NCBI GenBank assembly: GCA_964394405.1
Contig: CAYMVY010000001.1
Location: forward strand, 494,633-558,632
Length of the DNA: 64,000 nucleotides
Direction of reading: 5' to 3'
Origin: an uncultured Gammaproteobacteria bacterium
GTDB taxonomy: Bacteria > Patescibacteriota > Patescibacteriia > Magasanikbacterales > UBA922
Below, one piece after another: positions 1 through 32,836 of this stretch (the stretch's first letter is position 1; every line of letters starts with the position of its first letter). The position numbers and the translations under genes were made by a program. The notes under the pieces were generated by a model. It ran no database searches. It was given only the letters and a program-made list of their open reading frames with translations, and had not been told where the DNA came from.

Positions 1-13
1 GGCCCTCGCGGCC

Positions 14-1768: not shown

Positions 1769-2023
1769 ACGTGGTAAGGCGCATGTAGCGTCTTAACAAC
1801 AAGCGGAAGTTCCGCATTACATATCTGAACTCGTCATGCGGCACGAGAACAGATCACGGATCTGGTCGAAGGATCAGAACACAACTAGCCGCACCAAGGA
1901 GAAATATAGAAGGGAGAGAAGACAAGTATGATCTCGGCAGCAATGCCCCGATCGTCGAGTCTCTCTCCCGGTCTCAATTCTATTCCTCATCATGATGATG
2001 GGGGAGAGATAGAGAAGAAATTC

Positions 2024-2043
2024 AAAACTCAAAGTTCAAAACG
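2024..2043 (-). repeat. Third, solitary copy of the 20-bp end motif of the four-helix-bundle cassette (CGTTTTGAACTTTGAGTTTT).
   Basis: It is the exact 20-bp reverse complement of 11693-11712. It is also present with one mismatch at 6242-6260. Confidence 0.6.
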
Positions 2044-2437
2044 CAAAAGTAAAAAGAAAAATTTCTGAAATGTAGATAATAGATTTCAGATTCCAACATA
2101 TCTTTATCAAGTAAGACTGAACACTCAAAGTAATACATATTAGTGAGATACGCGTGAAGTTGTATTGGTAGAGAGATGTTGGAAACAAAGTAAAAAGAAG
2201 AGAAAAAAGAAAATACAAAACTCAATGCCGGTGGTAATGATAAGGCGGAAAGTAAATTACAATTCAATACACACCGCGTGGAATACGCGCGGGGAGAAAG
2301 CTCGCGCCTTGCGAGTTTTTTCAATAAACCGTAGAATGTACCCTTGCTAGTGCAATCAAAAACTTCTACTACCACGGGAATATAGGGAACTGTATGTCAG
2401 TGGCGGGAGAGGTTTCGGAAAAAATCTCACTGCACAG

Positions 2438-3613
2438 ATGGAGCAACTCATGCCATTTCGCGTCCTTTTGATTTCGTTCGCCCTGCTCTTCGGAGCGTGC
2501 GATAATACGATCGCGGGCTCTGTCCGCCAGATCGACCACACCACTCCCACCATCCTGAATATCGCGGACACGATCGAGCATAATACCTCGGTCGAAGACG
2601 CGGAGGATACCCACGTCCACATGGACGAGACCTCGGAAGACACGCGTGTCGAGGAAACTCAAGACACGGTCTCGACCGCAGAGACTGAGGTTGTGACTGA
2701 CACGATTGTCCCGGACACTGCTCCGGAGACGATCGAGGAAGTCGATAGTACAGACGACACCATCAATACAGAGGACACGGTCACCGTGGACACACGGGAT
2801 ACCCTGTCTCAGCCCGAGGTCACTCTAGCCGAGTGCACCCTCGACGCCGACTGCGTTGATGAAGACGAGCTGTGTTTCGAGGGCGAGTGTGTGACTGCGC
2901 ATGCTCTCTGCATGGCACACACCTCTGACCACATCTACCCTGAGCTCGAACTCTGCTGTGTCAAACAGCATCCGGTGTCTCAGGGAGAGGGACTCTGCTC
3001 CTACAGCATGGTCACGGATGAAATAGTGTTCTACTCATGTGTCGAACAAGGGACGAGCCTCGTAATCGAGGAAGTCTCGTGCGTCGATCACGACGAGGAC
3101 ACGAGTGATTCGTGTGATCAGTCGTCTGGGTGTGAAAACACCCCGATCGATTCAGACGACGACCTGTTCTATGACTCAGAGGACGACTGCCCCTTCGAAG
3201 CAGAGGTCTACGACTTCTACGACGACTGGGATGGCTGTCCCGAGGATGACCAGGACCACGACGGCTGGGCCCCACCAGAAGACTGCGACGACGACTCGAC
3301 CATAGACGGGCCTCTGGCCACGTACTGCGAGGACGAGTTCGGCTTCTACGTGATGATCAACACGTACGTCGACGACCTGTTCTACCCAGACTGTCTCGAG
3401 GACTCGTCACTGATCTTCCTGACCGATGGGTCGTTCTTCAATGGAGCGCACATCGCGGGCCAGGACTACCCGGGCGATGAGTTCGACAACGACTGCGACG
3501 GCCAGGCTGATGAAGCAGGTGAGACCGGGCTTATCGACTGCTGGTGGTACGAACTCGGTGAGTTCGTCTCACTGGTCGAGTGCCTGTGGATGACCGAGGA
3601 ATTGGCGGATTAG
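2438..3613 (+). CDS. Acidic secreted lipoprotein. It has a signal peptide with an LFGAC lipobox-like cysteine, a long Thr/Asp/Glu-rich linker, Cys-rich modules, thrombospondin-type-3-like Asp-rich calcium-binding motifs (DDDLFYDSEDDCPF, DDWDGCPEDDQDHDGW) and a GDEFDNDCDGQADE motif.
   Basis: The ORF is complete. GC3-rich codon usage contrasts with the AT-rich flanks, and the signal peptide is followed directly by Cys. Confidence 0.55.
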   Translation: MEQLMPFRVLLISFALLFGACDNTIAGSVRQIDHTTPTILNIADTIEHNTSVEDAEDTHVHMDETSEDTRVEETQDTVSTAETEVVTDTIVPDTAPETIEEVDSTDDTINTEDTVTVDTRDTLSQPEVTLAECTLDADCVDEDELCFEGECVTAHALCMAHTSDHIYPELELCCVKQHPVSQGEGLCSYSMVTDEIVFYSCVEQGTSLVIEEVSCVDHDEDTSDSCDQSSGCENTPIDSDDDLFYDSEDDCPFEAEVYDFYDDWDGCPEDDQDHDGWAPPEDCDDDSTIDGPLATYCEDEFGFYVMINTYVDDLFYPDCLEDSSLIFLTDGSFFNGAHIAGQDYPGDEFDNDCDGQADEAGETGLIDCWWYELGEFVSLVECLWMTEELAD

Positions 3614-3989
3614 CCCGCCCTATCCTCCACTTCGTGGGTGGGTCAGTGCATGCAATGGTTCGTAATTACGATGAGCCTGTATGTTCTTGACCCACCCGCG
3701 ACTACACAACTCCCTGTTGACTAATAGAGGTTTATATGTTACTGTTTGCAGTTGCGTAAGGAAATTCGCATCTTGTACGTCTTATAGCGGCGTGTAGTAT
3801 GCGGCGCTTGACTTAGGTCGAGCCCAAGGTTCTTTTACATATAGTGTTTTGTGAAAATTTGTATAGTCAAGAAACGGTGGATGTGTTTGTGCTCTCAACA
3901 AAGGCACGAATGCACCCCCGTTTCTTGACTGCGGTAGGTTCCGCAGCACAAGGATGGGTTCACGGCACATTCCCAGGAGGGAAACCGCC

Positions 3990-6008
3990 ATCATGTTGCT
4001 TCTGAAGAAGATCCACGAACGCTCCATCATCTTGATGGGGGTGTTCGCCCTGCTCGTGGGGTTCACGAGCGCCTGCATCGATGACGGGTCGCGAGACCCG
4101 GTCGGGTTCACCCAGGGTGCCAGTAACGACGGCGACAACGACGGCGTGCCGGACAACCCGGACAACTGCCCCGGGGTCTACAACCCGGGTCAGGAGAACA
4201 ACGACGGCGACTACGAGCCGTACGATGGGCAGATGGGCGACGCCTGCGACGACGACGACGACAACGACGGCGTCGAGGACGTCGACGACAACTGCCAGTT
4301 CGTCTGGAACGAAGACCAGCTGAACACCGACTGGGAGCTCTCCGAGGAGGAGAACTCGACGGTGGTCGGCGACAACATGGGCGACGCATGCGACGACGAC
4401 GACGACAACGACGACGTCTGCGACATGGGGGTCATGCTCTACAACGCGGACGTGTTGCCGAAGTCGGAGTGCGAGGGCTGGGACAACTGCCAGTTCACGT
4501 ACAACCCCGACCAGGAGAACCTGGACCAGGACTACTGGGGCGACGCCTGCGACGATGACGGCGACTGGGACGGTGTCTTCAATGACGAGGACAACTGCCC
4601 CGAGACCCAGAACCGATTCCAGGAAGACCTCGATCAGGACGGTATGGGCGACGCCTGCGATCCAGACGACGACAACGACGGCGCCTGCGATCCTCACCAT
4701 GAGGCGCGGCTCCCCTCGGCTCCGTGGCTTGAGGAATCACCGGATCAGTGCGAGGGCTGGGACAACTGCCCCGACCTCGAAAACCCTGATCAGTCTGATT
4801 GGGATGGCGACGGCAAGGGGGACTGGTGCGACGGCGATTGCCGTGGTGATGGGTTCTTCGAGGCCTACTACCCCGAGGACTTCCCGAACCTCTACTGCGA
4901 CGGCGACGACAACTGCACCCTCGACTCCGAGGAGTGCGACGACGAGAACAACTGCACCCTCGACTACTGGTGCAGCGATGGTGAAGGCGGCGAGTGCACG
5001 CACGAGAAGGACTACGAGAAGGGGGAGTGCATCGAGTGGTGCAACAACAGCGGACAGGGGCAGTGCAACGATCACGACCCCTGCACCGATGACGACTGCG
5101 AGGGCAACACGTGCGAGCATCAGCTCGACATCACCAACCTGGGCTGCGAGGAGCCGGGGTGCGACAACAACAACGACTGCGAGGACAACAACCCCTGCAC
5201 GGACGACGTCTGCAACCAGGAGACCGGCCAGTGCAGTCACAACAACGACAACACGAACGTCTGCGCCGACGCCGACCTCTGTGACGGCACCGAGACCTGC
5301 GTCTCGGGCGTCTGCACGGATCAGGAGGACCTCGTCTGCAACGACAGCAACCCCTGCACCGACGACACGTGCGTCCCGGCCACGGGTTGCTCCTACAGCA
5401 ACGACAACACGAACGTCTGCGCCGACGCCGACCTCTGTGACGGCACCGAGACCTGCGTCTCGGGCGTCTGCACGGATCAGGAGGACCTCGTCTGCAACGA
5501 CAGCAACCCCTGCACCGACGACACGTGCGTCCCGGCCACGGGTTGCTCCTACAGCAACGACAACACGAATGTGTGTACGGACGGCAACTCCTGCACAACC
5601 GACACCTGCTCGAGCGGTCAGTGCGTGGGCACGCCGATCCAGGAGTGTGGCGTCGTGGATCTCCACGGCGACACCCCGCCTGGTGTGGGTGGTGGAAACG
5701 GCGGACCGAATGCGGACGGAACCGATGACGCGAAGGATGACGACGGCGACTGCTATTGCGAGACCGCGCCGTGCACGTCCTCGGTGAACTCGACTTGCGG
5801 GCCCCTCCTCGGAGGCGACTGCGACGATGATCCGGACGACTCGGCCATGACGGTGAGGAATCCGGGTCCGAATCAGTTCTCGTCGGACGGCAGCTACTAC
5901 AACAACCCGGGTACGGACGGTCAGCAACCGAACGGGAACGAGTGGTGGGACGACAACTACGACAACGACTGCGACAACGTGGTCGACGACGGGTTCCCCG
6001 CGAACTGA
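3990..6008 (+). CDS. Secreted, likely lipoprotein, with N-terminal thrombospondin type-3 (TSP3) calcium-binding repeats followed by multiple Myxococcus-type cysteine-rich repeats. The C-terminal domain is shared with the 14..1768 protein.
   Basis: The TSP3 consensus DxDxDGxxDxxDNCPxxxNxxQxDxDxDGxGDxCD is matched several times (DNDGVPDNPDNCPGVYNPGQENNDGDYEPYDGQMGDACDDDDDNDGVEDVDDNCQF...). Repeated NPCTDDxC / CxDGxExC modules follow. The start at 3990 is preferred because a signal peptide (MLLLKKIHERSIILMGVFALLVGFTSAC) sits behind an AGGAGG ribosome-binding site; the alternative ATG is 3954. GC3 is very high. Confidence 0.65.
   Translation: MMLLLKKIHERSIILMGVFALLVGFTSACIDDGSRDPVGFTQGASNDGDNDGVPDNPDNCPGVYNPGQENNDGDYEPYDGQMGDACDDDDDNDGVEDVDDNCQFVWNEDQLNTDWELSEEENSTVVGDNMGDACDDDDDNDDVCDMGVMLYNADVLPKSECEGWDNCQFTYNPDQENLDQDYWGDACDDDGDWDGVFNDEDNCPETQNRFQEDLDQDGMGDACDPDDDNDGACDPHHEARLPSAPWLEESPDQCEGWDNCPDLENPDQSDWDGDGKGDWCDGDCRGDGFFEAYYPEDFPNLYCDGDDNCTLDSEECDDENNCTLDYWCSDGEGGECTHEKDYEKGECIEWCNNSGQGQCNDHDPCTDDDCEGNTCEHQLDITNLGCEEPGCDNNNDCEDNNPCTDDVCNQETGQCSHNNDNTNVCADADLCDGTETCVSGVCTDQEDLVCNDSNPCTDDTCVPATGCSYSNDNTNVCADADLCDGTETCVSGVCTDQEDLVCNDSNPCTDDTCVPATGCSYSNDNTNVCTDGNSCTTDTCSSGQCVGTPIQECGVVDLHGDTPPGVGGGNGGPNADGTDDAKDDDGDCYCETAPCTSSVNSTCGPLLGGDCDDDPDDSAMTVRNPGPNQFSSDGSYYNNPGTDGQQPNGNEWWDDNYDNDCDNVVDDGFPAN
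5244..5555 (+). repeat. Perfect in-frame 156-bp tandem duplication (2 copies) inside the 3990..6008 CDS. It encodes NDNTNVCADADLCDGTETCVSGVCTDQEDLVCNDSNPCTDDTCVPATGCSYS twice and is followed by a diverged partial third unit.
   Basis: Direct comparison shows 5244-5399 identical to 5400-5555. The third unit diverges from about 5569 (GAATGTGTGTACGG against GAACGTCTGCGCCG). Confidence 0.9.
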
Positions 6009-6177
6009 ACGCCGGTCACGAGCCGGATACGAAAAGGGTATAGCTGAGCCCTGAACACGGAACGAGCCAGGTGGCTCGAACAGCAACCCGGGAGTGGGGC
6101 GGCGCAATTCATGCGCTGCCTCCTCCCGACTTCTACAGTGTTCTCATGTATATGAGAGTAGTGAAGAAGTTACAATA

Positions 6178-6214
6178 AAAAAACATCCTATCATGCATCG
6201 GGATGTTTTTTAAA
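6178..6214. terminator. Bidirectional rho-independent terminator between the converging genes 3990..6008 (+) and 6425..7876 (-).
   Basis: AAAAAAACATCC-loop-GGATGTTTTTT: a 6-7 bp stem with an A-run on one side and a T-run on the other. Confidence 0.6.
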
Positions 6215-6221
6215 TTGAAAA

Positions 6222-6392
6222 AATTAGTATAACTCAAAACGTAAAACTCAAAGTTCAAAATTATAACTCAAATCTCAAAACTTTTTTCAAATCATTTTTT
6301 GAATCTAGTTTAGTCATAATCCCTCCCTGATTAAGTTTTAAATTTTACGTTATAGTTTTACGTTTTGACATTTGAGTTTTGAGTTATGCTAA
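6222..6392 (-). mobile_element. MITE-like, internally deleted, inverted copy of the four-helix-bundle gene cassette found at 11236..11722. It has ~18-bp terminal inverted repeats (ATTAGTATAACTCAAAAC ... GTTTTGAGTTATGCTAAT) and retains the promoter/RBS, the first 9 codons and the last few codons of the cargo gene.
   Basis: The reverse complement of 6290-6395 matches 11236-11344 with 2 mismatches. The reverse complement of 6222-6289 matches the 3' end and downstream flank of the gene (11670-11712). About 325 bp of ORF interior is missing, with the junction at GATTTGAAA|AAAGTTTTGAG. Confidence 0.8.
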
Positions 6393-6424
6393 TCTTCCCC
6401 TCCTTTTACTTTTTATTTTGCAAA

Positions 6425-7876
6425 TTACAAATCCTTCTCCGAATTTCTAATAAAATTAAACGTTTCTTTCTTCTCTCGATACAACACGCCAAACATAGCA
6501 CCCCACCACACCCACGTCATCCACATGACCGGTGTATGATGAAGCATGTTGTCGCCAAGACTCATGACACCAAAAGCAATAATCCAGCCCAGGAGATGTA
6601 TCGAGAGCGCGTGCGTTCCCATCCACACCTGGTCGAGATAAAATTTTCCTGCATTCCATACGAGTAACCACAGGAAGAGGAGATAGGTGAAAAGACCAAT
6701 CGTACCAAGCTCAATTGCAAATCGGAGATAATCATTGTGTGATTCAGTACTGTCGTCCCGGATATGTAGAGGGCTCTGTTCGTTTTCCCATACACGGGGG
6801 AAACTACCGTACCCGTATCCATACCACGGCCGCGCGAGAAATATAGGCACTGACTCAGAGATCAGATTTTGTCGCCATGAAATAGAGTCAGCTTCCTCAT
6901 CACGTGTAGTCAATCGTTGAATGAGCTGAATCCGCTCGAGATTGAAGTTGGTATATTTTTCGAGTACCTGATTGAGTGGGGAAAATATGAGGTAGAGTAT
7001 GAGCGTACCGAGTGCCAATATTCCCAAAAATTTTCTGAATTTTGCGAGACCAATCACTACGAGAAAAATGCCGAGTCCCACCCATGCACCACGAGTGAAG
7101 GTACAGGCAAGGAGAATCAAGAGAAAGAGGGTAATCAGATGTGCATATAATTTTTTGCGTGTGAGATAGAATGTTCGATCAATATATGCATGGTGAATAT
7201 GAATGAAGAGAAGAGAGACAATAAAAAAAGCAAATACATTGGGATGCGCAAAGGTGCCAAAAATGCGATCGCGGATATCAAAGGTGGTAATTCCTTTACC
7301 AAAAAATAATTGGAATATGCCAAATGCAATTGGGATAATACTCCCAACTACAATTGAAAGCGTGAGTTCGCGGAGACTGATATATTTTTTTCCAATAAAA
7401 ATGAATCCGAGAACAAAGAGGATGATAAGCACGAGGAATTTGACGCTCTCGAGTGCAGTCTCCATGGGAACAATGCTGACCATAGTACTCCCGAACATGA
7501 GTACGAGGAGGAGCATTGCAATTTTTAGTCCAGGAATTCGGTATGATCGTTGCAAGTGTGTCGCGAGCATGAATATTCCCCATAGCGCGATAATCATCGA
7601 GAATCCGGCATTGATATTCATCTGAACGCCTGCAACTCCTCCGAGTGACACATCTCGCCAAGTATCGAGAGTGGGGCGGAGTGCCAGGAAAACAAGTAAT
7701 AATTTTTCTCGCAAAAATATATGCCCAAAATACAATAGAGCGATCATGAGAAGTATGAGATCGATTTCGATAATCGGATTCACGAGTATGACCAGAAGAA
7801 AAATCACAGCGACAATCGAGTGGACTCGATTGCGTTGTGGTAGGGAAGACTGCATTGTTTTGAAATATTGGTACAT
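6425..7876 (-). CDS. O-antigen ligase / Wzy_C family polytopic membrane protein (WaaL-like).
   Basis: It has about 10 transmembrane segments and the characteristic periplasmic-loop motifs TRGAW ... GYGYGSF ... ESHNDYLRFAIELGTIGL (the HN-x-YL-x4-E-x-G signature). Confidence 0.8.
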   Translation of the reverse strand: MYQYFKTMQSSLPQRNRVHSIVAVIFLLVILVNPIIEIDLILLMIALLYFGHIFLREKLLLVFLALRPTLDTWRDVSLGGVAGVQMNINAGFSMIIALWGIFMLATHLQRSYRIPGLKIAMLLLVLMFGSTMVSIVPMETALESVKFLVLIILFVLGFIFIGKKYISLRELTLSIVVGSIIPIAFGIFQLFFGKGITTFDIRDRIFGTFAHPNVFAFFIVSLLFIHIHHAYIDRTFYLTRKKLYAHLITLFLLILLACTFTRGAWVGLGIFLVVIGLAKFRKFLGILALGTLILYLIFSPLNQVLEKYTNFNLERIQLIQRLTTRDEEADSISWRQNLISESVPIFLARPWYGYGYGSFPRVWENEQSPLHIRDDSTESHNDYLRFAIELGTIGLFTYLLFLWLLVWNAGKFYLDQVWMGTHALSIHLLGWIIAFGVMSLGDNMLHHTPVMWMTWVWWGAMFGVLYREKKETFNFIRNSEKDL

Positions 7877-7930
7877 GGTATACTACTGCACGAATACACA
7901 CGTGTGTAGTATATCCTACTTTTCCAACAG

Positions 7931-9166
7931 ATGACAATTCTTCAGGCACACAAATATTATTGGCCCCGCGATGGCGCATCCAATTACATGCTTTCACTCT
8001 CGAAATTACTTGAAGAGAGAGGTGAAACCGTAATTCCCTTTGCGATGCAGGGCAGAGAGAATCTTCCAACACCATATGGAGAATTTTTTGTACCAGAAAT
8101 GAATCTGAGAGATCCTGAAAAAGCGAATGTAGGGGAAAAAATACGCTACACACTCCGCATGTTCTATTCGATCGAAGCAAAAAAAAGAATGCGGAAATTA
8201 TTGGACACACATCCCGTGGATATTGCGCATATTCACAATATTTATCATCATATTTCACCTTCGATTTTATCAGAACTCAAGCGACGAAAAATTCCGATTG
8301 TGATGACGCTTCATGATTACAAATTGTTGGCGCCAAATTACACCATGTTTCATCATGGCGCAGTACACGAAGAAGACGCGCGCGGATGGTATCTCTCCTG
8401 TGTCAAGAATAAATGTATGAAAGATTCTCGTGCGCAGAGCGCGATTGTGGTTGCAGAGATGATTTGGCATCACAAAATTATGAAATATTATGAGCGCTAT
8501 GTAGACACCTTTATCGCGCCAAGCAGATTTATGAGAGATATCTGTATAAAATTTGGATGGGATGAACAGAAGTTTGTTCATATTCCACATCCTGCATTTG
8601 TTGAGTCCAAGCATCATGTCTCAAAAAAGGATAAAGAGTACGTGGCATATGTAGGTAGGTTATCAGAAGAAAAAGGTCTTCTCGTGCTACTGCGAGCTGC
8701 AAGCTACACCCCAGAGATCCCCTATGTGATTGTAGGCGAGGGTCCTCTTGAGAATAGAATGAGAGGAATGATTGCGAGTCGTAAGCTGAAGAATGTGTGG
8801 TGTGTGGGGTTCAAAACCGGCGCTGAATTGGAAACAATTATTAGCGAAGCACGAGTGTTGGTGCTCCCCTCAATCTGGTACGAGAATTATCCACTAAGCA
8901 TTCTCGAGGCAAAGGCTGCAGGAAATATTGTTATTGGAAGTAATATTGGGGGTATAGGAGAAATGCTCCCGCCTGAACTGGTAGTAGAAGCAGGGAATGA
9001 AGAAATGCTCGCGCATACTATACAGGAGTGGTATCACAAAAAAGCAAGTGAAAGAAAAAAAATGGGAGCACAGTTGCAAGAGGAAGTGAAAAAAGAAAAT
9101 GCACCCCTCGCTCATGTGCGCGCAATCGAGAATGTGTACGCGGCACTCACCAAACACACCACATAG
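7931..9166 (+). CDS. GT4 family glycosyltransferase (GT-B fold).
   Basis: The C-terminal GT4 signature is present: EEKGLLVLL ... VLPSIWYENYPLSILEAKAAGNIVIGSNIGGIGE (E-x7-E). Confidence 0.8.
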   Translation: MTILQAHKYYWPRDGASNYMLSLSKLLEERGETVIPFAMQGRENLPTPYGEFFVPEMNLRDPEKANVGEKIRYTLRMFYSIEAKKRMRKLLDTHPVDIAHIHNIYHHISPSILSELKRRKIPIVMTLHDYKLLAPNYTMFHHGAVHEEDARGWYLSCVKNKCMKDSRAQSAIVVAEMIWHHKIMKYYERYVDTFIAPSRFMRDICIKFGWDEQKFVHIPHPAFVESKHHVSKKDKEYVAYVGRLSEEKGLLVLLRAASYTPEIPYVIVGEGPLENRMRGMIASRKLKNVWCVGFKTGAELETIISEARVLVLPSIWYENYPLSILEAKAAGNIVIGSNIGGIGEMLPPELVVEAGNEEMLAHTIQEWYHKKASERKKMGAQLQEEVKKENAPLAHVRAIENVYAALTKHTT

Positions 9167-9180
9167 TGGATTCGTCTGTT

Positions 9181-11205
9181 ATGATTCATACCCTATACAA
9201 AAAATGTATATATCTCGGAGTAGTGCTCATGTTGCTCTCTGGATTGGTGTATCCGCGTAGTGCAGAGGCGTCGATTAATTCGCATACGTCACCGAGAATC
9301 GCAAATTATTTTTTGAAATGGGAGTTGACGGATATAGAAGCGACTGAACTTTCAAAATGGGATGTAGTTATATTGGATATGGAAGTACAATTCCGCAGTG
9401 CAGCAGCTCTCGCAAAATTAAAAAAATTGAATCCAGAAATCGTCCTTCTTGTGTATCTAACCCCCCAAGAAATCGCTACCAATGCAGCCACTGGGTGGAG
9501 TACTGCTAGACGCAAACTCGCTGCAGGAATTCCAGATGAGTGGTATCTCAAAAATAGTAGAGGAGAACGACTCTCCTGGTGGTCAGGAACGTATCTACTC
9601 AATGTGACTGATAGTGCGCCTGAACGCGGAGGAATGAGGCTGAATGAGTACATACCGCGATTTGTAGTGAATGAATTGTTATCTTCTGGATATTGGGACG
9701 GAGTGTATTATGATAATAGCTGGGATACTATTGCCTATTTTGCGGGAAATGATATTGATTTGAATCTCGATCGTTCACCAGATACCGCAACCGAGACCAA
9801 ATGGCAGGAGGGTATGAAAGAATTGTATGCAACGACCCGGAATTTGAGCGGGAGTGATATTATTATTGTGGGGAACAATCACAATACTGCATATCTCTCT
9901 GATCTCAATGGAAAACTACTCGAAAATTTTCCGAACGGTAATTGGGTGTCGACCATGAATACATTGAGAGCATTTTCGACTAGTCGAGCGGTGGTACCTC
10001 GTGTACCAATAGTCAATGCAAATACGGCAAATACCGGAATCCCTGATTATCGCTCCATGCGATATGGTTTGACCTCAGCACTCCTCGAGAATGCATATTT
10101 TGCCTATGACCACGGGGATCAGGATCATGGACAGACATGGTGGTACGATGAATACGAGGTATCGCTCGGGAATCCGATAACTGTAGCGCAATCACAGACC
10201 GGCAAGACTGAGTATGCGCCAGACGTGTGGTCGCGTAATTTTGAAAATGGAATTTCGATTGTGAATAGTACCAATGAGGCGCGTACCATTCCGCTTGACG
10301 GAGAGTATGAGCATATTCATGGTGTCCAGGACACGGCAGTGAATGATGGATCCATTGTCTCAGAAGTCACCCTTGCGCCAAAAGATGGACTCATATTATT
10401 GAAAACATTCGAGACACTGAAGAATGTCATTTTTACCAATGGTTTTTTTGCGCGATTTTTCAAGCCCACCGGTGAACGAGCACGCAATGGATTATTTGTT
10501 TTTGAAGAAGAGCAGAAAGGTGGCGCACAAATTGCGCATATTGATTTGAATTTTAATAATCAAGAAGATTTGGTCGTGGTGAGTGGTAACAAGATTCAGG
10601 GATGGAGAGATGATGGACAAATTTTGTTTAAGATTTACCCCTATGGTGCCAACTATACGGGATCGCTACATGTCGCGGTAGGTGATCTTGATAATGATGG
10701 CTTCTATGAAATATACAGTGCTCCGAGCGCTGGTTTTCGAGAACCCATTCGAAGGTATGATAGAAATGGAGCGACTATTGGAGGAGATCTTTTCCCCTAT
10801 GGTTCAGCATACAAAGGTGGATACCATATGGCCCTAACCAAAGCATCGGAGGCAGCTCCTGCGCGACTGATTGTGGGATCAGGGGTGGGGGTGAGACCAA
10901 CGATCACCGTCTATGGTCCTGACTTCAAAAAATTACTCGCCTTTAGCGCATTTGAATCTACATTCATGGGCGGGGTAAGTGTTGCTGCGGGAGATGTCGA
11001 GGGAGATGGAACACAGGAAATTATTGCAGGGAAAGGAAGTAATGGAGCGCCTACGGTAAAAGTATTTACCCTTCAGGGAAAAGAAAAATATCAATCCTTC
11101 AATGCGTATACTACGATGTTTAAACCTGGTATTGAAGTTCGTACATTGGATATTGATTTTGATGGGAAAGATGAGATTGTGACCCTATCGGATGGAGCGT
11201 TATAA
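9181..11205 (+). CDS. Secreted protein. The N-terminal domain is a putative TIM-barrel glycoside-hydrolase-like domain (GH114/GHL-type; low certainty). The C-terminal domain is an FG-GAP/VCBS-like beta-propeller.
   Basis: A signal peptide is present. The C-terminus has repeated GDLDNDGFYE and GDVEGDGTQEII motifs typical of FG-GAP repeats. The N-terminal WDVVILDME region resembles the polysaccharide-hydrolase-like families. An alternative GTG start lies at 9166. Confidence 0.5.
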   Translation: MIHTLYKKCIYLGVVLMLLSGLVYPRSAEASINSHTSPRIANYFLKWELTDIEATELSKWDVVILDMEVQFRSAAALAKLKKLNPEIVLLVYLTPQEIATNAATGWSTARRKLAAGIPDEWYLKNSRGERLSWWSGTYLLNVTDSAPERGGMRLNEYIPRFVVNELLSSGYWDGVYYDNSWDTIAYFAGNDIDLNLDRSPDTATETKWQEGMKELYATTRNLSGSDIIIVGNNHNTAYLSDLNGKLLENFPNGNWVSTMNTLRAFSTSRAVVPRVPIVNANTANTGIPDYRSMRYGLTSALLENAYFAYDHGDQDHGQTWWYDEYEVSLGNPITVAQSQTGKTEYAPDVWSRNFENGISIVNSTNEARTIPLDGEYEHIHGVQDTAVNDGSIVSEVTLAPKDGLILLKTFETLKNVIFTNGFFARFFKPTGERARNGLFVFEEEQKGGAQIAHIDLNFNNQEDLVVVSGNKIQGWRDDGQILFKIYPYGANYTGSLHVAVGDLDNDGFYEIYSAPSAGFREPIRRYDRNGATIGGDLFPYGSAYKGGYHMALTKASEAAPARLIVGSGVGVRPTITVYGPDFKKLLAFSAFESTFMGGVSVAAGDVEGDGTQEIIAGKGSNGAPTVKVFTLQGKEKYQSFNAYTTMFKPGIEVRTLDIDFDGKDEIVTLSDGAL

Positions 11206-11235
11206 AGTAAAAAGTAAAAGGGAAAAAGGTAAAAG

Positions 11236-11722
11236 ATTAGTATAACTCAAAACTCAAATGTCAAAACGTAAAACTATAACGTAAAATTTAAAACTTAATC
11301 AGGGAGGGATTATGGCTAAACTAGATTCAAAAAATGATTTGAAAGTACGTGCGTATTTTCTATCAATACAGACCATACGTTTTTTAGAGATAGTGCCTGA
11401 AAAACGTGTGTATTGGACAATTGGAGATCAGCTACTTAGATCAGTAACGTCAATTGGGGCAAATATTGTCGAAGCAAAATCATCAGCCTCACGAAAAGAG
11501 TTTATCAAGTTCTATCAAATTTCCCTTAAGTCAGCGAATGAGAGTAAATACTGGCTCGGATTATTACGTGATACTACAAATATGGATAAAGACTTAGACA
11601 ATAACATACTGAATGAGGTTGTAGAAGTTGCAAATATGCTTGGATCAAGTATCATTACCATGAAGAATAAAAAGTTTTGAGATTTGAGTTATCGTTTTGA
11701 ACTTTGAGTTTTAAGTTTTGAG
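11236..11722 (+). mobile_element. Small terminal-inverted-repeat-bounded cassette carrying a four-helix-bundle protein gene. It is the full-length counterpart of the MITE-like element at 6222..6392.
   Basis: The left terminal inverted repeat ATTAGTATAACTCAAAAC (11236-11253) is identical to the element end at 6222. Both ends are built from degenerate ACTCAAA / GTTCAAAACG units. The right end (…CGTTTTGAACTTTGAGTTTTAAGTTTTGAG) is a partly degenerate inverted copy. Confidence 0.65.
11312..11680 (+). CDS. Four-helix-bundle protein (TIGR02436 / 23S rRNA intervening-sequence protein family, PF05635).
   Basis: The family signature is present: GDQLLRSVTSIGANIVEA ... SRKEFIKFYQISLKSANESKYWLGLL. The protein is 122 aa and is preceded by a strong RBS (AGGGAGGG). 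Confidence 0.8.
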   Translation: MAKLDSKNDLKVRAYFLSIQTIRFLEIVPEKRVYWTIGDQLLRSVTSIGANIVEAKSSASRKEFIKFYQISLKSANESKYWLGLLRDTTNMDKDLDNNILNEVVEVANMLGSSIITMKNKKF

Positions 11723-11732
11723 ATGGGTCTCT

Positions 11733-13580
11733 ATGCAATACGTTGAAAAGCATCTAACCAAACACCATTTATTGAACGCTCCCCACAAGTGGTTTTTCGC
11801 GTTCTTAGCATCGCCCATACATTTTGCTGAAATGCACTATAAGAATCGATATCATCTGCAGTTTTCTCATGCACGGAAATTATTTTTGTTCGACATGTCT
11901 CTCCTCGCGACACTGGCTGTGATTGCTGGAGCATTCTTATTCTGGAGTACCTATAATCCCACAGTGACAGATCTGGTATATCTCACGGTCACTCCTTCGC
12001 AATCAAGAATTTTGAGTGGAGAGTATGTGACATACACCGTAGGATATGAGAATAAAAGTGATGTGCGACTTTCGAATGCATCCATAACTCTAGACATTCC
12101 TGAAGGATTTATTCTTGATAAAACCGAGCCTGCGACATTTGATCGCTCAAATAATACGATGAAACTCGGTTCAATTGGTTCAGGGGAAAAGGGGAGTGTC
12201 TCGATCTCAGGCTGGTTCTATGGAACACCAGAAGTAGAAGATCATATCCATGCGCATATTAACTATGCCCAAGAAGGGAAAACGCGTACTGAGAATAAAA
12301 TGAGCCCGCATATCATATTTTTACGTGGGTCATTATTGGAGTCTTCGGTTGAATTGCAGGAACAGATTATCGAAAATTCACGCATTCCATTCACAATAAC
12401 GTTAGTCAATAATGGTTCGGAGCCTCTGCTCAATATTGTATTTGATCTAAGTCCAGTCAATACAATTGGAGTACTAGAGAGTGTGACAACTACGAGAGGA
12501 TTGGTGAATGGTGGAATGTGGAATTTATCAGGTCTGCTTCCTGATGAGTCTGTAGAGCTCGAGGGAATCATTGTGATTAGAGGAGGGTTGGGAGAAAATA
12601 CGTATTCGATAAAATTAGCACCAGCACTCTCAATTCGTGGCAAGACAATCACCCAATCAACGGTAACAAAATCTGTACAAGTCGCACGTCCAGAAGCTCG
12701 GGTTAGTGCTCGATGGGATAATGATTCCGCCATGTTAAAACCTAGCGAAACTGGTAGGTTGACTGCGACGATTACCAATACCGGGTCAATCACACTCGAA
12801 CAGGGAGTGATTGAAATTCCGCTTCCCAAAACAATTGTAAATCTGCAGGAGGCTGCGAGAGTGAATGCAGGGACAGTGAGTCAAAATACACTGATTCTTT
12901 CTTCCGCAAAACACCCAGCACTTAATTCGATCTCTCCGGGAGAGTCCCGAACAATTGCACTATTGGTTCCTATTCTTGCAATACCTGATGGGGGAACCGA
13001 CACTGTGCTCCAACCAACAGTTCGCTTCCATGCAGGAGTCGCGATTGATCCAAATACAAGGGTTGAGGCTACAGGGAAAACAGGGCAGCTCAAAGTAGGG
13101 ACACAGGTAGTCTTTACTGGAGAAATTCGGTACTATACTGCCGAGGGCGATCAGCTCGGGCGAGGACCGCTACCTCCACAGGTTGGAAAAGAGACCAAGT
13201 ACGCCGCCCTATTTTCGATTCGCAATACCACGAGCAATGTTACGGGGGGAATACTCAGCGTAAAACTTGGAAGCCGTGCAGTGTGGACGGGTAAGACGAG
13301 CGTTAGTCAGGGGTCTGCTCCTACCTATAACCCCTCGACCCGTATAGTACGGTGGAATGTGGGAACCATTCCAGCGCATGCGACAGTAGGTCTATTTTTT
13401 GAAGTTGGACTGACTCCAGAGGACGAAGAAGTGGGGACCACGCCAGTATTGGTGCTAAGCGCGGAAATTACTGGTACAGATGCCTATCTAGGGTATATGG
13501 TGAGCCGTTCGATAGGCGCTCTTGACACCTCCCTCGGCACAGATCTGATTGGGAGGACAAAAGGGGTGACTGTACGTTGA
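11733..13580 (+). CDS. Membrane-anchored surface protein with repeated DUF11-type (conserved repeat domain) beta-sandwich domains.
   Basis: An N-terminal transmembrane helix (SLLATLAVIAGAFLFW) is followed by repeated motifs such as TITNTGS and TLVNNGSEPL. The start is uncertain: the track uses TTG at 11718, and ATGs lie at 11733 and 11835. Confidence 0.55.
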   Translation: MQYVEKHLTKHHLLNAPHKWFFAFLASPIHFAEMHYKNRYHLQFSHARKLFLFDMSLLATLAVIAGAFLFWSTYNPTVTDLVYLTVTPSQSRILSGEYVTYTVGYENKSDVRLSNASITLDIPEGFILDKTEPATFDRSNNTMKLGSIGSGEKGSVSISGWFYGTPEVEDHIHAHINYAQEGKTRTENKMSPHIIFLRGSLLESSVELQEQIIENSRIPFTITLVNNGSEPLLNIVFDLSPVNTIGVLESVTTTRGLVNGGMWNLSGLLPDESVELEGIIVIRGGLGENTYSIKLAPALSIRGKTITQSTVTKSVQVARPEARVSARWDNDSAMLKPSETGRLTATITNTGSITLEQGVIEIPLPKTIVNLQEAARVNAGTVSQNTLILSSAKHPALNSISPGESRTIALLVPILAIPDGGTDTVLQPTVRFHAGVAIDPNTRVEATGKTGQLKVGTQVVFTGEIRYYTAEGDQLGRGPLPPQVGKETKYAALFSIRNTTSNVTGGILSVKLGSRAVWTGKTSVSQGSAPTYNPSTRIVRWNVGTIPAHATVGLFFEVGLTPEDEEVGTTPVLVLSAEITGTDAYLGYMVSRSIGALDTSLGTDLIGRTKGVTVR

Positions 13581-13605
13581 TAGAAAATGTATAAAGAATA
13601 TATGC

Positions 13606-13634
13606 AAAAAATCGCTTATTTTAGCGATTTTTTG
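13606..13634. terminator. Rho-independent terminator after the DUF11 protein gene.
   Basis: AAAAAATCGCT-TATTTT-AGCGATTTTTT: a 9-bp stem flanked by an A-run and a T-run. Confidence 0.65.
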
Positions 13635-13659
13635 CTGGATTTTTCAATGCTTTCTTCAC

Positions 13660-13688
13660 TTGACAATATACTCCATCTGTGCTATACT
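13660..13688 (+). promoter_or_regulatory. Consensus sigma70-type promoter (TTGACA-17-TATACT) about 150 nt upstream of the GT4 gene at 13837.
   Basis: TTGACA lies at 13660-13665 and TATACT at 13683-13688, with 17-nt spacing. Confidence 0.45.
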
Positions 13689-13836
13689 GAGCCGTTTACT
13701 AGTGATTGACAGATTCTCTGCTTACTCCCAGTATATGGGCACGGTGTTGACTCTATTTGCTTTATACTGATAAGGTTAAGTAATGGTTTAATTAGTTATT
13801 GCATTTTACCCAGATTTATTTAATTTAACGCATCAT

Positions 13837-15012
13837 ATGCGTATAGCCATGATCGGTCAAAAAGGAATCCCTGCGGTCTATGGTGGCGTGGAAAAACACG
13901 TACACGATCTTTCGGTACGTCTGGCAGAAAAAGGGCACCACGTAACAGTCTATGCTCGGAGCTGGTATACCGGATCTCATGGTACTGATACTGTTCAGGG
14001 TGTAACACGAGTACATACTCCTACTATTAGAACCAAACATCTTGATACAATTGTACATGTATTTACTTCAACTATTCATGCACTATTCCAACACACTGAT
14101 GTACTCCACTACCATGGAGTCGGTCCAGCATTGCTGGCGTGGATTCCACGAGTCTTTGCTCCTCGAACTAGGGTGGTAGTAACACTCCATTCACTCGATC
14201 GGTTCCATCAGAAATGGAATTGGTTTGCTCGATATGCACTCAAATTAGGTGAGCAAGCAACATACTTCTTTGCACATGAGACAATTGCAGTATCACGCAG
14301 TCTACAACAGTATGTGCAAAAAAAATACGGAAAAACAATCAATTGCATTCCCAATGGAGTGGAGACACCTCGTTTACCTAATTCAGAAAAGCATATCAAT
14401 TCTTTTGGCCTTACCCAGGGGAATTATATCGTAATGATTTCACGACTGGTTCCACACAAAGGGGCGCATCTTCTGATTGAAGCGTTCAAAGAATTGAAGG
14501 CGCGAAATCTGGAAAATCCAAAAATTGCATCACTCAAACTCGCAATTGTCGGGGGTTCTGCATACACTGATGAGTATGTGAAAGATCTGCATGCGAGTGC
14601 TGGAATTCTCAATGACATTATATTCACTGATTTTCAATCAGGAAGTGCATTGGATGAATTGTATGCCCACGCGCGTGTAATGGTGAATCCTTCGTTAAAT
14701 GAAGGATTGCCAATCACGGTGCTTCAGGCAATGAGTTATGGTATTCCTGTATTACTTTCGTCAATTCCGGAGCACAAAGAAATTACGAATAACAATCAGG
14801 TATTCTTCAATGAAAATGATGTAGAATCATTGGTCGTCCGTCTAGAAGCTTTTATGAGACTGACTGATGAGGAGCGAGCGCGAATCGGGAGAGAAAATAA
14901 GGCCATTATTCAGGAACGGTATGACTGGAATAATATTGTACCTCTCATAGAAAATACCTATCACGTAGTCAAAACTTCTCCTACCAAAATGAGTGCTACG
15001 TCTACCGTATAA
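13837..15012 (+). CDS. GT4 family glycosyltransferase.
   Basis: The N-terminus reads MRIAMIGQKGIPAVYGGVEKHV. The C-terminus has the GT4 motif VNPSLNEGLPITVLQAMSYGIPVL. Confidence 0.8.
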   Translation: MRIAMIGQKGIPAVYGGVEKHVHDLSVRLAEKGHHVTVYARSWYTGSHGTDTVQGVTRVHTPTIRTKHLDTIVHVFTSTIHALFQHTDVLHYHGVGPALLAWIPRVFAPRTRVVVTLHSLDRFHQKWNWFARYALKLGEQATYFFAHETIAVSRSLQQYVQKKYGKTINCIPNGVETPRLPNSEKHINSFGLTQGNYIVMISRLVPHKGAHLLIEAFKELKARNLENPKIASLKLAIVGGSAYTDEYVKDLHASAGILNDIIFTDFQSGSALDELYAHARVMVNPSLNEGLPITVLQAMSYGIPVLLSSIPEHKEITNNNQVFFNENDVESLVVRLEAFMRLTDEERARIGRENKAIIQERYDWNNIVPLIENTYHVVKTSPTKMSATSTV

Positions 15013-15166
15013 AAATATAAATAACAAAAACGACCCTCCAAGAAGAACACATGTAGGGTCGTTTTTTGTTACAAAAAAACCGCATAATGCGGAAATAAAT
15101 TAGAGGACGAGAGGTACGAGAGAGTGCGCTTCGCGTATGCGAATACCACACTCTCTCGTCCATGCC

Positions 15167-15886
15167 TCACGGGTCGTCGCAACCTTCGAGTTCGGTCTTG
15201 GCGACGTAGAGGAGCTCTGGGCATCGTGCAGGATCTTGGCTCGGTACGATCGAGTACGTCAGGCGATCGAGGAACTGCCACGTGGTCACGTTTTTGAAGA
15301 GCGTGACACAGCCGTTCCCGTATCCGTACGACGGATCACGAGGATCTCGAAGTTCGATCCAGTATCCGCTCTCGCACAGTTCTCCGAGAGGGAGCCACTC
15401 GGAATAGGGTATGACCCCAGTCTTCTCCCATGGCTCGCGTCCGAAGATGATGGTTATCTCCTCGCCATCGTGCAGATGTGCTGGGGGAGGTGAGCCATCG
15501 TAGCCAGAAAGTACGTAGATGAGGACGTCGCGACTGACGCACTGTCCGTCAGGAGTACAGTCCTTGCCACTGGCGCAGTGCCAGTCTTCGGTGCACGGGA
15601 GTGTTTCTGTGAACACCTCTTCCGTCGGTATGGTAGTGTCTTCGACCGCAGTGTCATCGAGTGTGATGTCTGCATCGGGAACGTCTGCGAGATCGGTAGG
15701 GATGTAGGGGTGCTCGACCATGTCAGCCCATTTCTCGGTGATGATGGTCACAGGAACCTGTGCATCACTCGAGGAGGTGGCGTCACTATCGCTCCATACA
15801 TCTTGCTCCATTCTCACGACGATAGTGATATCGTCGTAGTCGCAGGCGATGATGAGGAAGGCCAGGGGAATGAACAAACGCTTCAT
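15167..15886 (-). CDS. Cys-containing secreted lipoprotein of unknown function; the fourth GC3-rich gene.
   Basis: A GGAGG RBS lies 8 nt upstream of the ATG at 15886. The signal peptide MKRLFIPLAFLIIAC has an IIAC lipobox. Cys-rich C-terminal motifs follow (CTEDWHCASGKDCTPDGQCV). GC3 is high, unlike the neighbouring genes. Confidence 0.55.
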   Translation of the reverse strand: MKRLFIPLAFLIIACDYDDITIVVRMEQDVWSDSDATSSSDAQVPVTIITEKWADMVEHPYIPTDLADVPDADITLDDTAVEDTTIPTEEVFTETLPCTEDWHCASGKDCTPDGQCVSRDVLIYVLSGYDGSPPPAHLHDGEEITIIFGREPWEKTGVIPYSEWLPLGELCESGYWIELRDPRDPSYGYGNGCVTLFKNVTTWQFLDRLTYSIVPSQDPARCPELLYVAKTELEGCDDP

Positions 15887-16043
15887 GGTATTTCCTCCGC
15901 AAGGGAAGTTTGGTTGGGACTTGTACAAAGACACTGTTGTCTTATACAAGCAATCTGTAGCGTTATAGAAATACGACTTTAGTCCCACACCACAATCTTT
16001 GGTGCGAAGTAGTATTTCTACAAATTACAGCTATGTGATAACA

Positions 16044-26761: not shown

Positions 26762-26829
26762 AGATTGACTTTTGCTATAAAATATAGCATACTATAAACA
26801 TATATTTTATTCAATATTTGTGCTTAATT

Positions 26830-31835: not shown

Positions 31836-31841
31836 CATTGT

Positions 31842-32828: not shown

Positions 32829-32836
32829 ATTCTTCT

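Follow-up and report, generated by a model that had tools for sequence, protein, structure and literature searches.

The spacer between a GHL15/FG-GAP gene and a DUF11 gene, at positions 11207-11724 of a 64,000-nt stretch of contig CAYMVY010000001.1 (the whole stretch is hereafter the window), probably holds an intervening-sequence (IVS)-type unit that lies outside ribosomal RNA (rRNA). The unit consists of a four-helix-bundle (4HB) gene of the PF05635/TIGR02436 family, whose product has an Avd-like fold, set between inverted arrays of tandem heptamers, and an internally deleted copy of 171 bp lies in the opposite orientation on the far side of three glycan genes. To our knowledge, this family, first found in rRNA intervening sequences in the 1990s, has had no function assigned since. 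While the rRNA IVS is already known, IVS-type units in operon spacers, with derivatives that lack the open reading frame (ORF), are new, and the searchable literature yielded no description of inverted heptamer arrays around PF05635/TIGR02436 genes outside rRNA IVSs.

Anatomy of the unit and of its protein

The window has a GC content of ~40% and belongs to a compact genome whose nearest protein relatives are Magasanikbacteria and other Patescibacteria. The unit occupies the entire spacer from the GHL15 stop codon (11205) to the DUF11 start codon (ATG at 11733) (Table 1), and its orthologue is found in the related locus L001. Its arms are ~55 nt each. The A-rich stretch 11207-11296 and the T-rich stretch 11672-11723 are ~72% reverse-complementary and both are built of 7-nt units, with a lag-7 autocorrelation of 0.63 in the 5′ arm and of 0.60-0.63 over both arms. 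An earlier reading of the same DNA, made from the sequence alone, had placed here an element of ~490 bp with inverted-repeat ends. Its arms are borne out by profile search, but its limits are not: the outer 10 nt of the right terminal inverted repeat (TIR) are absent or replaced in the full copy, and on the left, outside the TIR proposed there, outer A-rich repeats begin at 11207. These outer repeats have no 3′ partner in the window and correspond to the 5′ arm of a 'B-type' unit found at the same junction in L088 and L092.

The 122-aa product belongs to the PF05635/TIGR02436 family, and every family feature tested is found in it. It scores 74.7 bits against PF05635 (cut-off 33.8) and 84.8 bits against TIGR02436 (cut-off 24), in agreement with the sequence-only reading, which had assigned the gene to the family of 23S rRNA IVSs. 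The conserved G..R...S...N..E motif of the family (PMC3936711) is present as GDQLLRSVTSIGANIVE at residues 38-54, and D39, Q40, R43, S47, N51 and E54 are invariant across 30 homologues. An AF2 monomer model, computed with 30 homologues in the alignment, has four helices at a pLDDT of 91.4. Foldseek places the model closest to 2RLD (E 1e-6, TM 0.8-0.9) and 2GSC (E 3e-4), both of them pentamers, followed by Avd (4DWL) and the ribonucleoprotein (RNP) of a diversity-generating retroelement (DGR; 8UB7); phmmer also matches the 122-aa protein to 2RLD, which has five chains, at E 6e-15. The family is large, the search for closest homologues by itself having returned 1,710 clusters. The protein is 84% identical between the window (11312-11680) and L001 (7451-7819), compared with 56-69% for the flanking orthologues, so that the small gene is either more constrained than its host genes or was exchanged more recently.

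Table 1 Features of the unit, of its deleted copy and of the adjoining genes (window coordinates; E values as defined in the text)
Feature	Position	Strand	Remarks
Solitary arm-like stretch	2020..2063	+	Flanked by two GC-rich genes for repeat proteins; nhmmer E 5e-3; identical to the 3′ arm over 20/20 nt
Terminator-like element	6177..6211	.	A-run, CATCC...GGATG hairpin, T-run; usable on both strands; separates the convergent 3954-6008 gene from Wzy and the mini copy
Mini copy	6222..6392	-	Both arms, ribosome-binding site (RBS) and 10-11 codons; 326-bp internal deletion; between Wzy stop (6425) and the terminator-like hairpin
Leftover 18-codon ORF	6261..6317	-	Sequence MTKLDSKNDLKKVLRFEL, then stop
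Deletion junction	6282..6287	-	Six-A run on the element strand; 2-3 nt A microhomology
Flank of mini copy, still homologous to the flank of the full copy	6393..6419	-	AAAATAAAAAGTAAAAGG; 135 nt at 91%, including this flank
Wzy_C, O-antigen ligase/polymerase-like, 'W-type'	6425..7876	-	Not orthologous to Wzy of the nearest relatives
GT4 glycosyltransferase	7931..9166	+	In swapped cassette
GHL15/FG-GAP protein	9229..11205	+	Orthologous in relatives, 56-67% identity
Full unit	11207..11724	+	Outer A-rich heptamers, 5′ arm, RBS, four-helix-bundle gene, 3′ arm
Outer A-rich repeats	11207..11236	+	AAAGTAAAAAGTAAAAGGGAAAAAGGTAAAAGA
Terminal motif	11236-11246	+	ATTAGTATAAC; precedes the 5′ arm
5′ arm	11242..11296	+	Tandem heptamers (ACTCAAA, ATGTCAA, ACGTAAA and similar); nhmmer E 1e-6
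Shine-Dalgarno-like GGGAGGG	11302..11308	+	3 nt ahead of ATG; within the predicted hairpin loop (sequence, fold)
122-aa four-helix-bundle gene	11312..11680	+	PF05635/TIGR02436; motif GDQLLRSVTSIGANIVE
3′ arm	11672..11723	+	T-rich complement of the heptamers; begins at the stop codon; nhmmer E 1e-6, minus orientation

The arms as a sequence family

A scan of one genome per species yielded 80 homologous 4HB loci (homologues 44-84% identical) that span many classes of the candidate phyla radiation (CPR), Planctomycetota, Omnitrophota, Nitrospirae, Dehalococcoidia and Bacteroidota. The arm profile (nhmmer) was built from the 3′ arms of these loci, and the E values given for the window arms thus come from a profile made solely from other genomes. 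Its complete list of matches in the 64-kb window is 2020-2063, 6229-6283, 6333-6386, 11242-11296 and 11672-11723. Around GHL15 homologues of related Magasanikbacteria-like bacteria it matches once in 0.97 Mb, against 169 matches in 0.80 Mb around 4HB genes. The same 3′-arm profile picks up the 5′ arm, in opposite orientation, in the window and in most of the 80 loci; both arms are found at E < 0.01 in 51 of them, and the 5′- and 3′-arm consensus sequences are nearly identical (~AACTCAAAACTCAAAANTCAAAACCACAACTNAAAACTTAAAACT). An arm is 71.2% identical to the partner in its own unit, compared with 66.0% +/- 0.8 for random partners.

Controls drawn from the same loci show how closely these flanks go with the gene. 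An inverted repeat of z >= 4 flanks 65% of 4HB genes but 2% of other ORFs of 100-170 aa (Mann-Whitney p = 2e-27), and a 7-nt (lag-7) periodicity is present in the 3′ flank of 94% of 4HB genes as compared with 8% of controls. Other CPR subtypes of the gene have a like layout with heptamers of the ATTTCCAAA, AAAGGCY and AAAAGTAAAAA types. Complete cyanobacterial plasmids carry (GCAATTC)x4 (two Nostoc plasmids), (GTAATTC)x4 (Dolichospermum), (GAGGTCG)x4 (Nostoc HK-01), (CCCCAAT)x4 together with (CGTAAAT)x3 (Planktothrix) and (TTTTAGA)x2-3 (Gloeocapsa). The conserved feature is the 7-nt period with its inverted arrangement, while the heptamer itself varies. The two sides of a unit always share one heptamer, and a typical array has 4-8 of them.

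All seven annotated 'four helix bundle protein' genes examined on cyanobacterial plasmids (L173, L176-L180) are flanked by inverted arrays of perfect tandem heptamers, and the heptamer differs in nearly every plasmid examined. In many homologues (among L010-L083, for example L010, L012, L020 and L021) the 5′ arm extends into the reading frame, so that its repeats CTCAAAACTCAAAACCACAAC are translated and give an N-terminal extension such as MSKLKTQNHNSNLKT. Here the nucleotide repeats dictate a low-complexity tail on the protein.

Placement, copies and decay of the units

Across the 80 loci the units measure ~445-455 bp. The neighbour is on the same strand upstream in 67 loci and downstream in 66, the gene is co-oriented in ~83%, and the gaps to the neighbouring stop and start codons are mostly <= 5-20 nt. 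Short gaps and co-direction are the expected outcome of insertion into compact operon spacers, and the orientation bias suggests that the ORF depends on read-through from the host operon and is under selection. A published 'association' of the family with cas genes, in which a family gene stands tightly between cmr3 and cmr2, leaving gaps of 86 and 6 nt (PMC3936711), fits this pattern.

The units are discrete. Two contigs of one metagenome-assembled genome (MAG), L010 and L011, share ~460 bp at ~99% identity from arm end to arm end, with unrelated flanks on either side. Genes for proteins 72-79% identical to the window 4HB protein have unrelated surroundings; that of L084, for instance, has an rsmI-like methylase on one side and a tRNA synthetase on the other. 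Arm pairs without an ORF, 100-200 bp in length, are present in L033 (two), L041, L061, L010 and L012. The claim of the sequence-only reading that the 4HB gene is part of a discrete inverted-repeat unit therefore holds well beyond the window, and the similar flanks of other family members that it had suggested looking for are present.

L033, a Bacteroidales MAG, has a local pile-up of units and arms at 2490-8292: within 6 kb lie a full unit, ORF-less arm pairs at 7449-7579 and 8168-8292, two tandem direct arm copies with a gene-end remnant at 4789-4933, and a solo arm. A link to phages is not seen, as 2.9 million viral contigs contain the arm consensus a single time and the 4HB protein has no PHROG, just two weak phage tblastn matches and no meaningful PADLOC match.

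The deleted copy and the solitary arm

The mini copy aligns to the full unit on both sides of a single deletion. In reverse complement, 6285-6396 is 98.2% identical to 11233-11344 across 112 bp, including a perfect tract of 73 bp, and 6233-6286 corresponds to 11669-11722 with 94.4% identity across 54 bp. What the mini copy lacks is the 326 bp that the full copy has at 11343-11668. The GGGAGGG RBS, the ATG (6317-6315) and 10-11 codons are retained and are fused out of frame to the last codons, and the 18-codon ORF that results is probably meaningless. Its TIRs, ATTAGTATAACTCAAAAC (6222-6239) and GTTTTGAGTTATGCTAAT (6375-6392), are complementary at 17 of 18 positions. Because the full copy lacks the outer 10 nt of its right TIR, the mini copy has the more complete ends. 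The homology between the two copies runs 23-30 nt past the 5′ TIR, nearly to the Wzy and GHL15 stop codons (6397-6419 versus 11204-11235); it includes the AAAATAAAAAGTAAAAGG flank and thus does not end at the TIR. The mini copy is predicted to fold into a single long hairpin (-50.5 kcal/mol, z -5.8 against 200 shuffles), and in the minimum-free-energy structure of the 530-nt full unit the arms likewise pair.

Much of what the sequence-only reading had seen at this site is reproduced: the 171-bp copy in opposite orientation, its near-perfect 18-bp TIRs, the fusion of the first codons to the last codons and 3′ flank, and copies that abut the stop codons of the outermost genes. Its inverted repeat of ~105 bp at 98%, with ~70 bp more at lower identity, becomes the 112 and 54 bp given above. 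The deletion of ~325 bp with AAA microhomology stands at 326 bp, with a microhomology of 2-3 A within a run of six. Of the promoter, RBS and 9 codons said to be retained, the RBS is there and the codons number 10-11, while the promoter falls away: in a promoter and terminator scan the arm promoter matches 9/12 of the consensus and such sites are no commoner than in shuffles, so we do not count a 'cargo promoter' as evidence. The solitary end fragment that had been noted at 2024-2043 is an arm-like stretch at 2020-2063, real but weak.

The terminator-like hairpin next to the mini copy has a loop of 12 nt, which is why a simple terminator scan missed it. Read towards the outside, the terminal 11 nt of the TIR (GTTATACTAAT; 6382-6392, 11236-11246 and L092 3205-3215) resemble a -10 box (TATACT), and a TATACT/TATAAT box stands 12-20 nt ahead of the first ATG of the glycan operon in L088, L089, L091, L092 and L001. 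The arm ends may carry an outward-facing promoter, which we offer as a lead from sequence resemblance.

History of the GHL15-DUF11 junction and origin of the deleted copy

A comparison of the junction in the nearest relatives, which were located by way of the GHL15 protein, helps to place the two copies in time. The window and L001 carry a full unit of the window type; L088 and L092 each hold a full unit too, but its protein (49% identity) and its arms are of another kind. In L091 only the last ~55 bp of the ORF and the 3′ arm remain, and in L089 an L091-like 3′ remnant is accompanied by a 92-aa GIY-YIG gene with its own long inverted repeats, which replaces the rest. As the junction is occupied in L001, L088, L089, L091 and L092, the full copy of the window is not a recent insertion. 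The site has thus been occupied for long, its occupant has been exchanged at least once, and internal deletion is recurrent. Other 4HB subtypes directly follow GHL15 in L106, L113 and L132, and arm remnants in minus orientation are found at the same left border of the glycan cluster in L092 and L088, that of L092 sharing the ATTAGTATAAC end.

The GIY-YIG gene belongs to a second small palindromic element at L089 10040-10660 with the inverted repeats TGTCATCCCGAGG... and ...CTCGAAATGACA, and ORF-less hairpin versions of these repeats lie at the left border of the glycan cluster (L089 ~4100-4240, L001 ~1480-1590). Most of 80 related loci have the order GHL15(+) GT4b(-) DUF11(-) HTH_17(-) sigma(+) (for example L094, L100, L111, L122 and L123). 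In the window (11733-15012) and its nearest relatives the [DUF11-GT4b] block is inverted; of the two breakpoints of this old inversion, the left one is where the 4HB unit lies, and the right one showed no arm.

The mini copy itself could, as a tentative proposal, be a by-product of local rearrangement and not a mobile derivative: an inverted segmental duplication of the GHL15-DUF11 spacer, or an old left-border copy homogenised by gene conversion. It would date from the exchange of the Wzy/GT4 cassette by recombination, and a microhomology deletion would later have shortened it. The homology includes flank that is not TIR and that is specific to the GHL15-DUF11 junction in relatives; the mini copy sits exactly at the left edge of the Wzy and GT4a segment, which is non-orthologous in the five nearest relatives; L092 and L088 have their minus-oriented remnants at this left border; and the locus family shows other rearrangements, such as the inverted [DUF11-GT4b] block. 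The L092 remnant could in particular represent an old left-border copy that was later homogenised by gene conversion. Against such an origin, the more complete right TIR of the mini copy cannot have been copied from the present form of the full unit, the left-border remnants of L088 and L092 are not homogenised with their right-hand units, and a metagenome scan with the Wzy protein produced no donor sequence. We rate a local event tied to the cassette swap somewhat above a mobilised deletion derivative.

A model for the unit and its alternatives

The reading that we favour starts from the observed anatomy, generality and orthology of the unit, from the deletion and the identity of the two copies, and from the fold prediction. 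The units would be discrete modules of ~450-500 bp in short spacers of co-directional genes, read through and presumably co-transcribed with the host operon, and that of the window would be an old resident of the GHL15-DUF11 junction in a glycan cluster. In the transcript the A-rich 5′ arm and the U-rich 3′ arm would pair to give a long imperfect stem enclosing the RBS and the ORF. As the rRNA IVSs would suggest, RNase III probably cleaves this stem, and the module would thereby be released from the cistrons on either side and be tolerated at any site; such processing would explain its tolerance both in rRNA and between cistrons. Units would decay by internal deletion into ORF-less hairpins, of which 6222-6392 would be one. 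This copy was probably taken recently from the window unit or from a near-identical one (~2-6% divergence) and placed inverted between the Wzy stop and the terminator, at the left edge of the swapped Wzy/GT4 cassette, either by mobilisation in trans or by recombination or inverted duplication during the swap.

Several observations weigh against parts of this model. The fold score of the 530-nt full unit is weak (z -1.8). The arms are only ~71% complementary (76% with G-U pairs), the variable heptamer positions pair in 50% of cases versus 42% by chance, and sense-strand mismatches that G-U pairing would accommodate are not in excess (130 vs 179); the G-U asymmetry test for selection at the RNA level did not separate RNA from DNA. 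Weak pairing without a G-U excess indicates that the main constraint is on repeat sequence and period and not on pairing. None of the 80 homologous loci has rRNA signatures (in L015 and L055, where weak rRNA-like motifs occur, there is no rRNA), and with no locus in rRNA the link to rRNA IVSs rests on architecture and literature. Two further observations bear on the origin of the mini copy: its homology beyond the TIR and the minus-oriented L092 remnant with its ATTAGTATAAC end at the same left border.

A period of 7 nt that is kept while the heptamer is free to change, alike on both sides of a unit, points to recognition by a protein. These sequence patterns suggest that the arrays are also read by a protein, possibly by the pentameric product itself. 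Taken further, the arms could be first of all binding arrays for the encoded pentamer, one heptamer per contact, serving autoregulation, RNA packaging or copy-homing, with the hairpin secondary; we consider this somewhat unlikely. It would agree with the shared and variable heptamer, with sequence that is more conserved than pairing, with arrays of 4-8 heptamers, and with a fold family that also contains Avd, a protein seated on structured RNA in the ribonucleoprotein of DGRs. The ~83% co-orientation with host transcription, too, would argue that the protein is expressed and selected, and it is better conserved than its neighbours between the window and L001. However, similar proteins go with different heptamers (the protein of L106 is closest to that of L047 and yet has ATTTCCAAA arms), ORF-less pairs persist without the protein, and the ORF of the Coxiella IVS appears dispensable and unexpressed (PMC4990558).

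A true DNA transposon, with the arms as TIRs for a transposase encoded elsewhere, the full unit as a cargo-carrying non-autonomous element and the 171-bp copy as a miniature inverted-repeat transposable element (a MITE) that transposed to where it now lies, is unlikely. The near-perfect 18-bp TIR of the mini copy, the discrete unit duplicated between unrelated flanks in L010/L011, close homologues in unrelated contexts, the 4HB subtypes that have come independently to lie right after GHL15, and ORF-less arm pairs in several phyla would all be expected of one. So would the position of the mini copy precisely between stop codon and terminator, at a place where nine other loci with a Wzy of the window type have none. 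There is, however, no target-site duplication at the mini copy (flanked by ...GGGGAAG and TTTTTTC), at the full copy or at L010/L011, and no transposase in the unit or among its annotated neighbours (ORFs 14-29965), the full-length member encoding the 4HB protein alone. The homology in the window continues 23-30 nt past the 5′ TIR, although that of L010/L011 does end at the arms; the 64 kb hold one mini copy and one solo arm; and the full copy has long been inherited vertically at one site. We know of no bacterial MITE whose TIRs resemble these ~55-nt arms of tandem heptamers that vary between units. The MITE-like derivatives proposed by the sequence-only reading thus exist as ORF-less forms (the mini copy, those of L033, L041, L061, L010 and L012, and the L091 remnant), but neither a target-site duplication nor a transposase marks the mini copy as transposed.

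The glycan genes between the copies

The two copies bracket Wzy_C, GT4 and GHL15/FG-GAP genes, the trio named in the sequence-only reading, as inverted repeats of 112 bp at 98% identity, 4.8 kb apart. The five nearest relatives hold no orthologues of the window Wzy and GT4a; in all of them GT4-Wzy-GT4 is found, on the plus strand. In a set of 80 metagenome loci taken around GHL15 homologues, Wzy of the window type (31-43% identity) is on the minus strand in nine of nine other loci (L108, L113, L119, L120, L122, L125, L133, L138 and L144), and Wzy of the L001 type is on the plus strand in 30 of 30. As the strand is fixed by the Wzy family, the window cassette is in its native orientation and an inversion is not needed to account for it; we accordingly rejected the idea that the repeat pair flipped Wzy. 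What comes after the Wzy stop in the nine W-type loci is a simple terminator hairpin with no arm, so the mini copy is specific to the window lineage and does not, as we had also considered, belong ancestrally to the Wzy(-) cassette. Scanning metagenomes with the window Wzy protein returned neither relatives nor a donor sequence.

Window-like Wzy genes are always divergent from GT4-GHL15, and L001-like ones are always co-directional. From their distribution the two families look like alternative glycan cassettes exchanged between lineages, and the layout of the window cluster appears to come from cassette exchange and not from a repeat-driven switch.

The sequence-only reading had proposed that the inverted pair mediates inversion of 6393-11235 and so phase-varies the Wzy/GT4/GHL15 module; this we now judge highly improbable. 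The repeats, with their 73-bp perfect tract, do bracket the three genes, the copies are near-identical while the L001 orthologue is at ~75%, which could reflect ongoing gene conversion, and inversions have occurred in this locus family. The fixed strands of the two Wzy families (nine loci and 30) and the armless W-type loci nevertheless argue for native orientation, and Pfam scans of window ORFs 14-29965 find no site-specific recombinase or invertase. An inversion would move whole genes and not a promoter, and the end genes would keep the element in the same relative orientation, so that it has no obvious on/off outcome. The only second assembly, Logan contig L087 (SRR12404947), is an independent short-read assembly of the same strain and is 100% identical to window 8399-11271. 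It covers the first 36 nt of the unit, 30 of them in the 5′ arm, and breaks where the two copies become identical, a repeat-induced end that carries no information on orientation. The 73-bp tract could support a rare RecA-dependent homologous inversion.

Least of all, with negligible probability, the similarity would reflect chance in AT-rich, low-complexity intergenic DNA, a doubt the sequence-only reading had itself raised: the arms are A/T-rich and repetitive and short two-copy matches of such sequence are common, but the 112 bp at 98% span the RBS and 10-11 codons, the profile has matches at just three sites of the 64 kb and a single one in 0.97 Mb of related DNA, and inverted repeats flank 2% of controls against 65% of 4HB genes.

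The surroundings of the module belong to one large surface-glycan region that extends from ~6 kb to at least 30 kb of the window, with a second Wzy_C (692 aa) at 23527-25605 and a long run of GT4 and sugar-nucleotide genes at 25589-35000. To the left, the genes at 14-1768, 2438-3613 and 3954-6008 encode Cys/Asp-rich repeat proteins (Dicty_CTDC, TSP_3 and MopE-like motifs) at 54-67% GC in a ~40% GC genome. A similar GC-rich gene flanks the cluster in L001 (66% nucleotide identity), and this composition, conserved in relatives, is therefore not the mark of an assembly chimera.

Comparison with known systems

The unit most resembles the IVSs of rRNA. The S23p/PF05635 ORF is found in 23S and 16S rRNA IVSs of Leptospira and Coxiella and also in CPR rRNA insertions (PMC4990558, PMC11270868). 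The IVS of Coxiella burnetii, of 428 nt, has terminal inverted repeats that form a 28-bp stem, and its S23p ORF is immediately preceded by 2-3 tandem GACAGAT heptamers. The first repeat is the site of RNase III cleavage, and the ORF suffers deletions among strains, with one of 176 bp in AuQ01 (PMC4990558). Shared with the window unit are the ORF family, terminal inverted repeats forming a long stem, tandem heptamers upstream of the ORF, a total of ~430-500 nt, an ORF prone to deletion and a sporadic distribution that suggests horizontal spread. The window unit differs in lying between protein genes of a glycan operon and not in an rRNA helix, and in its heptamers; moreover, RNase III cutting is known for Coxiella, whereas the window unit is read from sequence. 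Unlike in the rRNA IVS, the RBS is inside the loop, so that the ORF could still be translated after cleavage of the stem. No Rfam family is found in window 1-16000 at E <= 1. By its location the window unit is not an rRNA IVS, and the three other IVS features tested match.

Avd (4DWL; DGR RNP 8UB7) shares the four-helix-bundle fold at a TM of ~0.7-0.8. Solved relatives of Avd form a pentameric barrel, and Avd is a nucleic-acid-associated RNP partner (cf. PMC10053308). Sequence identity is, however, 13-15%, and Avd genes are not described with inverted heptamer arrays. ORFs 14-29965 include no reverse transcriptase domain and window 1-16000 no long direct repeat pair of the template/variable repeat type that would indicate a DGR.

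Bacterial MITEs and palindromic repeats (Correia/NEMIS, RUP, REP/BIME, RPE) are likewise small and intergenic, with terminal inverted repeats, a hairpin transcript, frequent co-transcription with neighbours and ORF-less members. The window unit differs from them in having neither target-site duplication nor related transposase, in arms that are tandem heptamers and not a unique TIR, in a full member that encodes a non-transposase 4HB protein, and in its single copy in the window.

The short tandemly repeated repetitive (STRR) sequences are dispersed repeats without known function. The arrays of the cyanobacterial plasmids look like the STRR heptamer repeats of heterocystous cyanobacteria, with which they share tandem 7-nt units in intergenic spacers; our literature search found no paper that links STRR to PF05635 genes. 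In Geobacter metallireducens, tandem 7-8-nt repeats form 53 inverted pairs in the spacers of operons, and these were interpreted as regulator-binding sites (Aklujkar et al. 2009, PMC2700814). As described, they are alike in being inverted tandem 7-8-nt repeats in spacers between adjacent operon genes, and differ in that the listed pairs, between consecutive genes, enclose no ORF. Many of these paired sites have a copy of the IS110-family element ISGme8 at a constant distance (PMC2700814, Table S4), which suggests that such repeat pairs serve as IS110 targets.

A wider synthesis, which we advance as rather improbable in its full extent, would join PF05635 pentamers and heptamer arrays into one self-contained unit whose protein reads the 7-nt register and which spreads without a transposase of its own; it would underlie ORF-bearing rRNA IVSs, the scattered operon 4HB genes of CPR, Bacteroidota, Planctomycetota and cyanobacteria, and at least part of the STRR-type arrays and ORF-less palindromic pairs. 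More narrowly, the packaging of the gene almost always with arrays, the occupation of spacers in many phyla and the decay to ORF-less hairpins recast PF05635/TIGR02436 genes as the cargo that a selfish or semi-selfish module of IVS-like kind carries. Family members have time and again been taken as 'associated' with the operon in which they happen to lie, cas loci among them; such apparent associations then become insertions, and the module may connect to the unexplained heptamer repeats of cyanobacteria and to the paired repeats of Geobacter.

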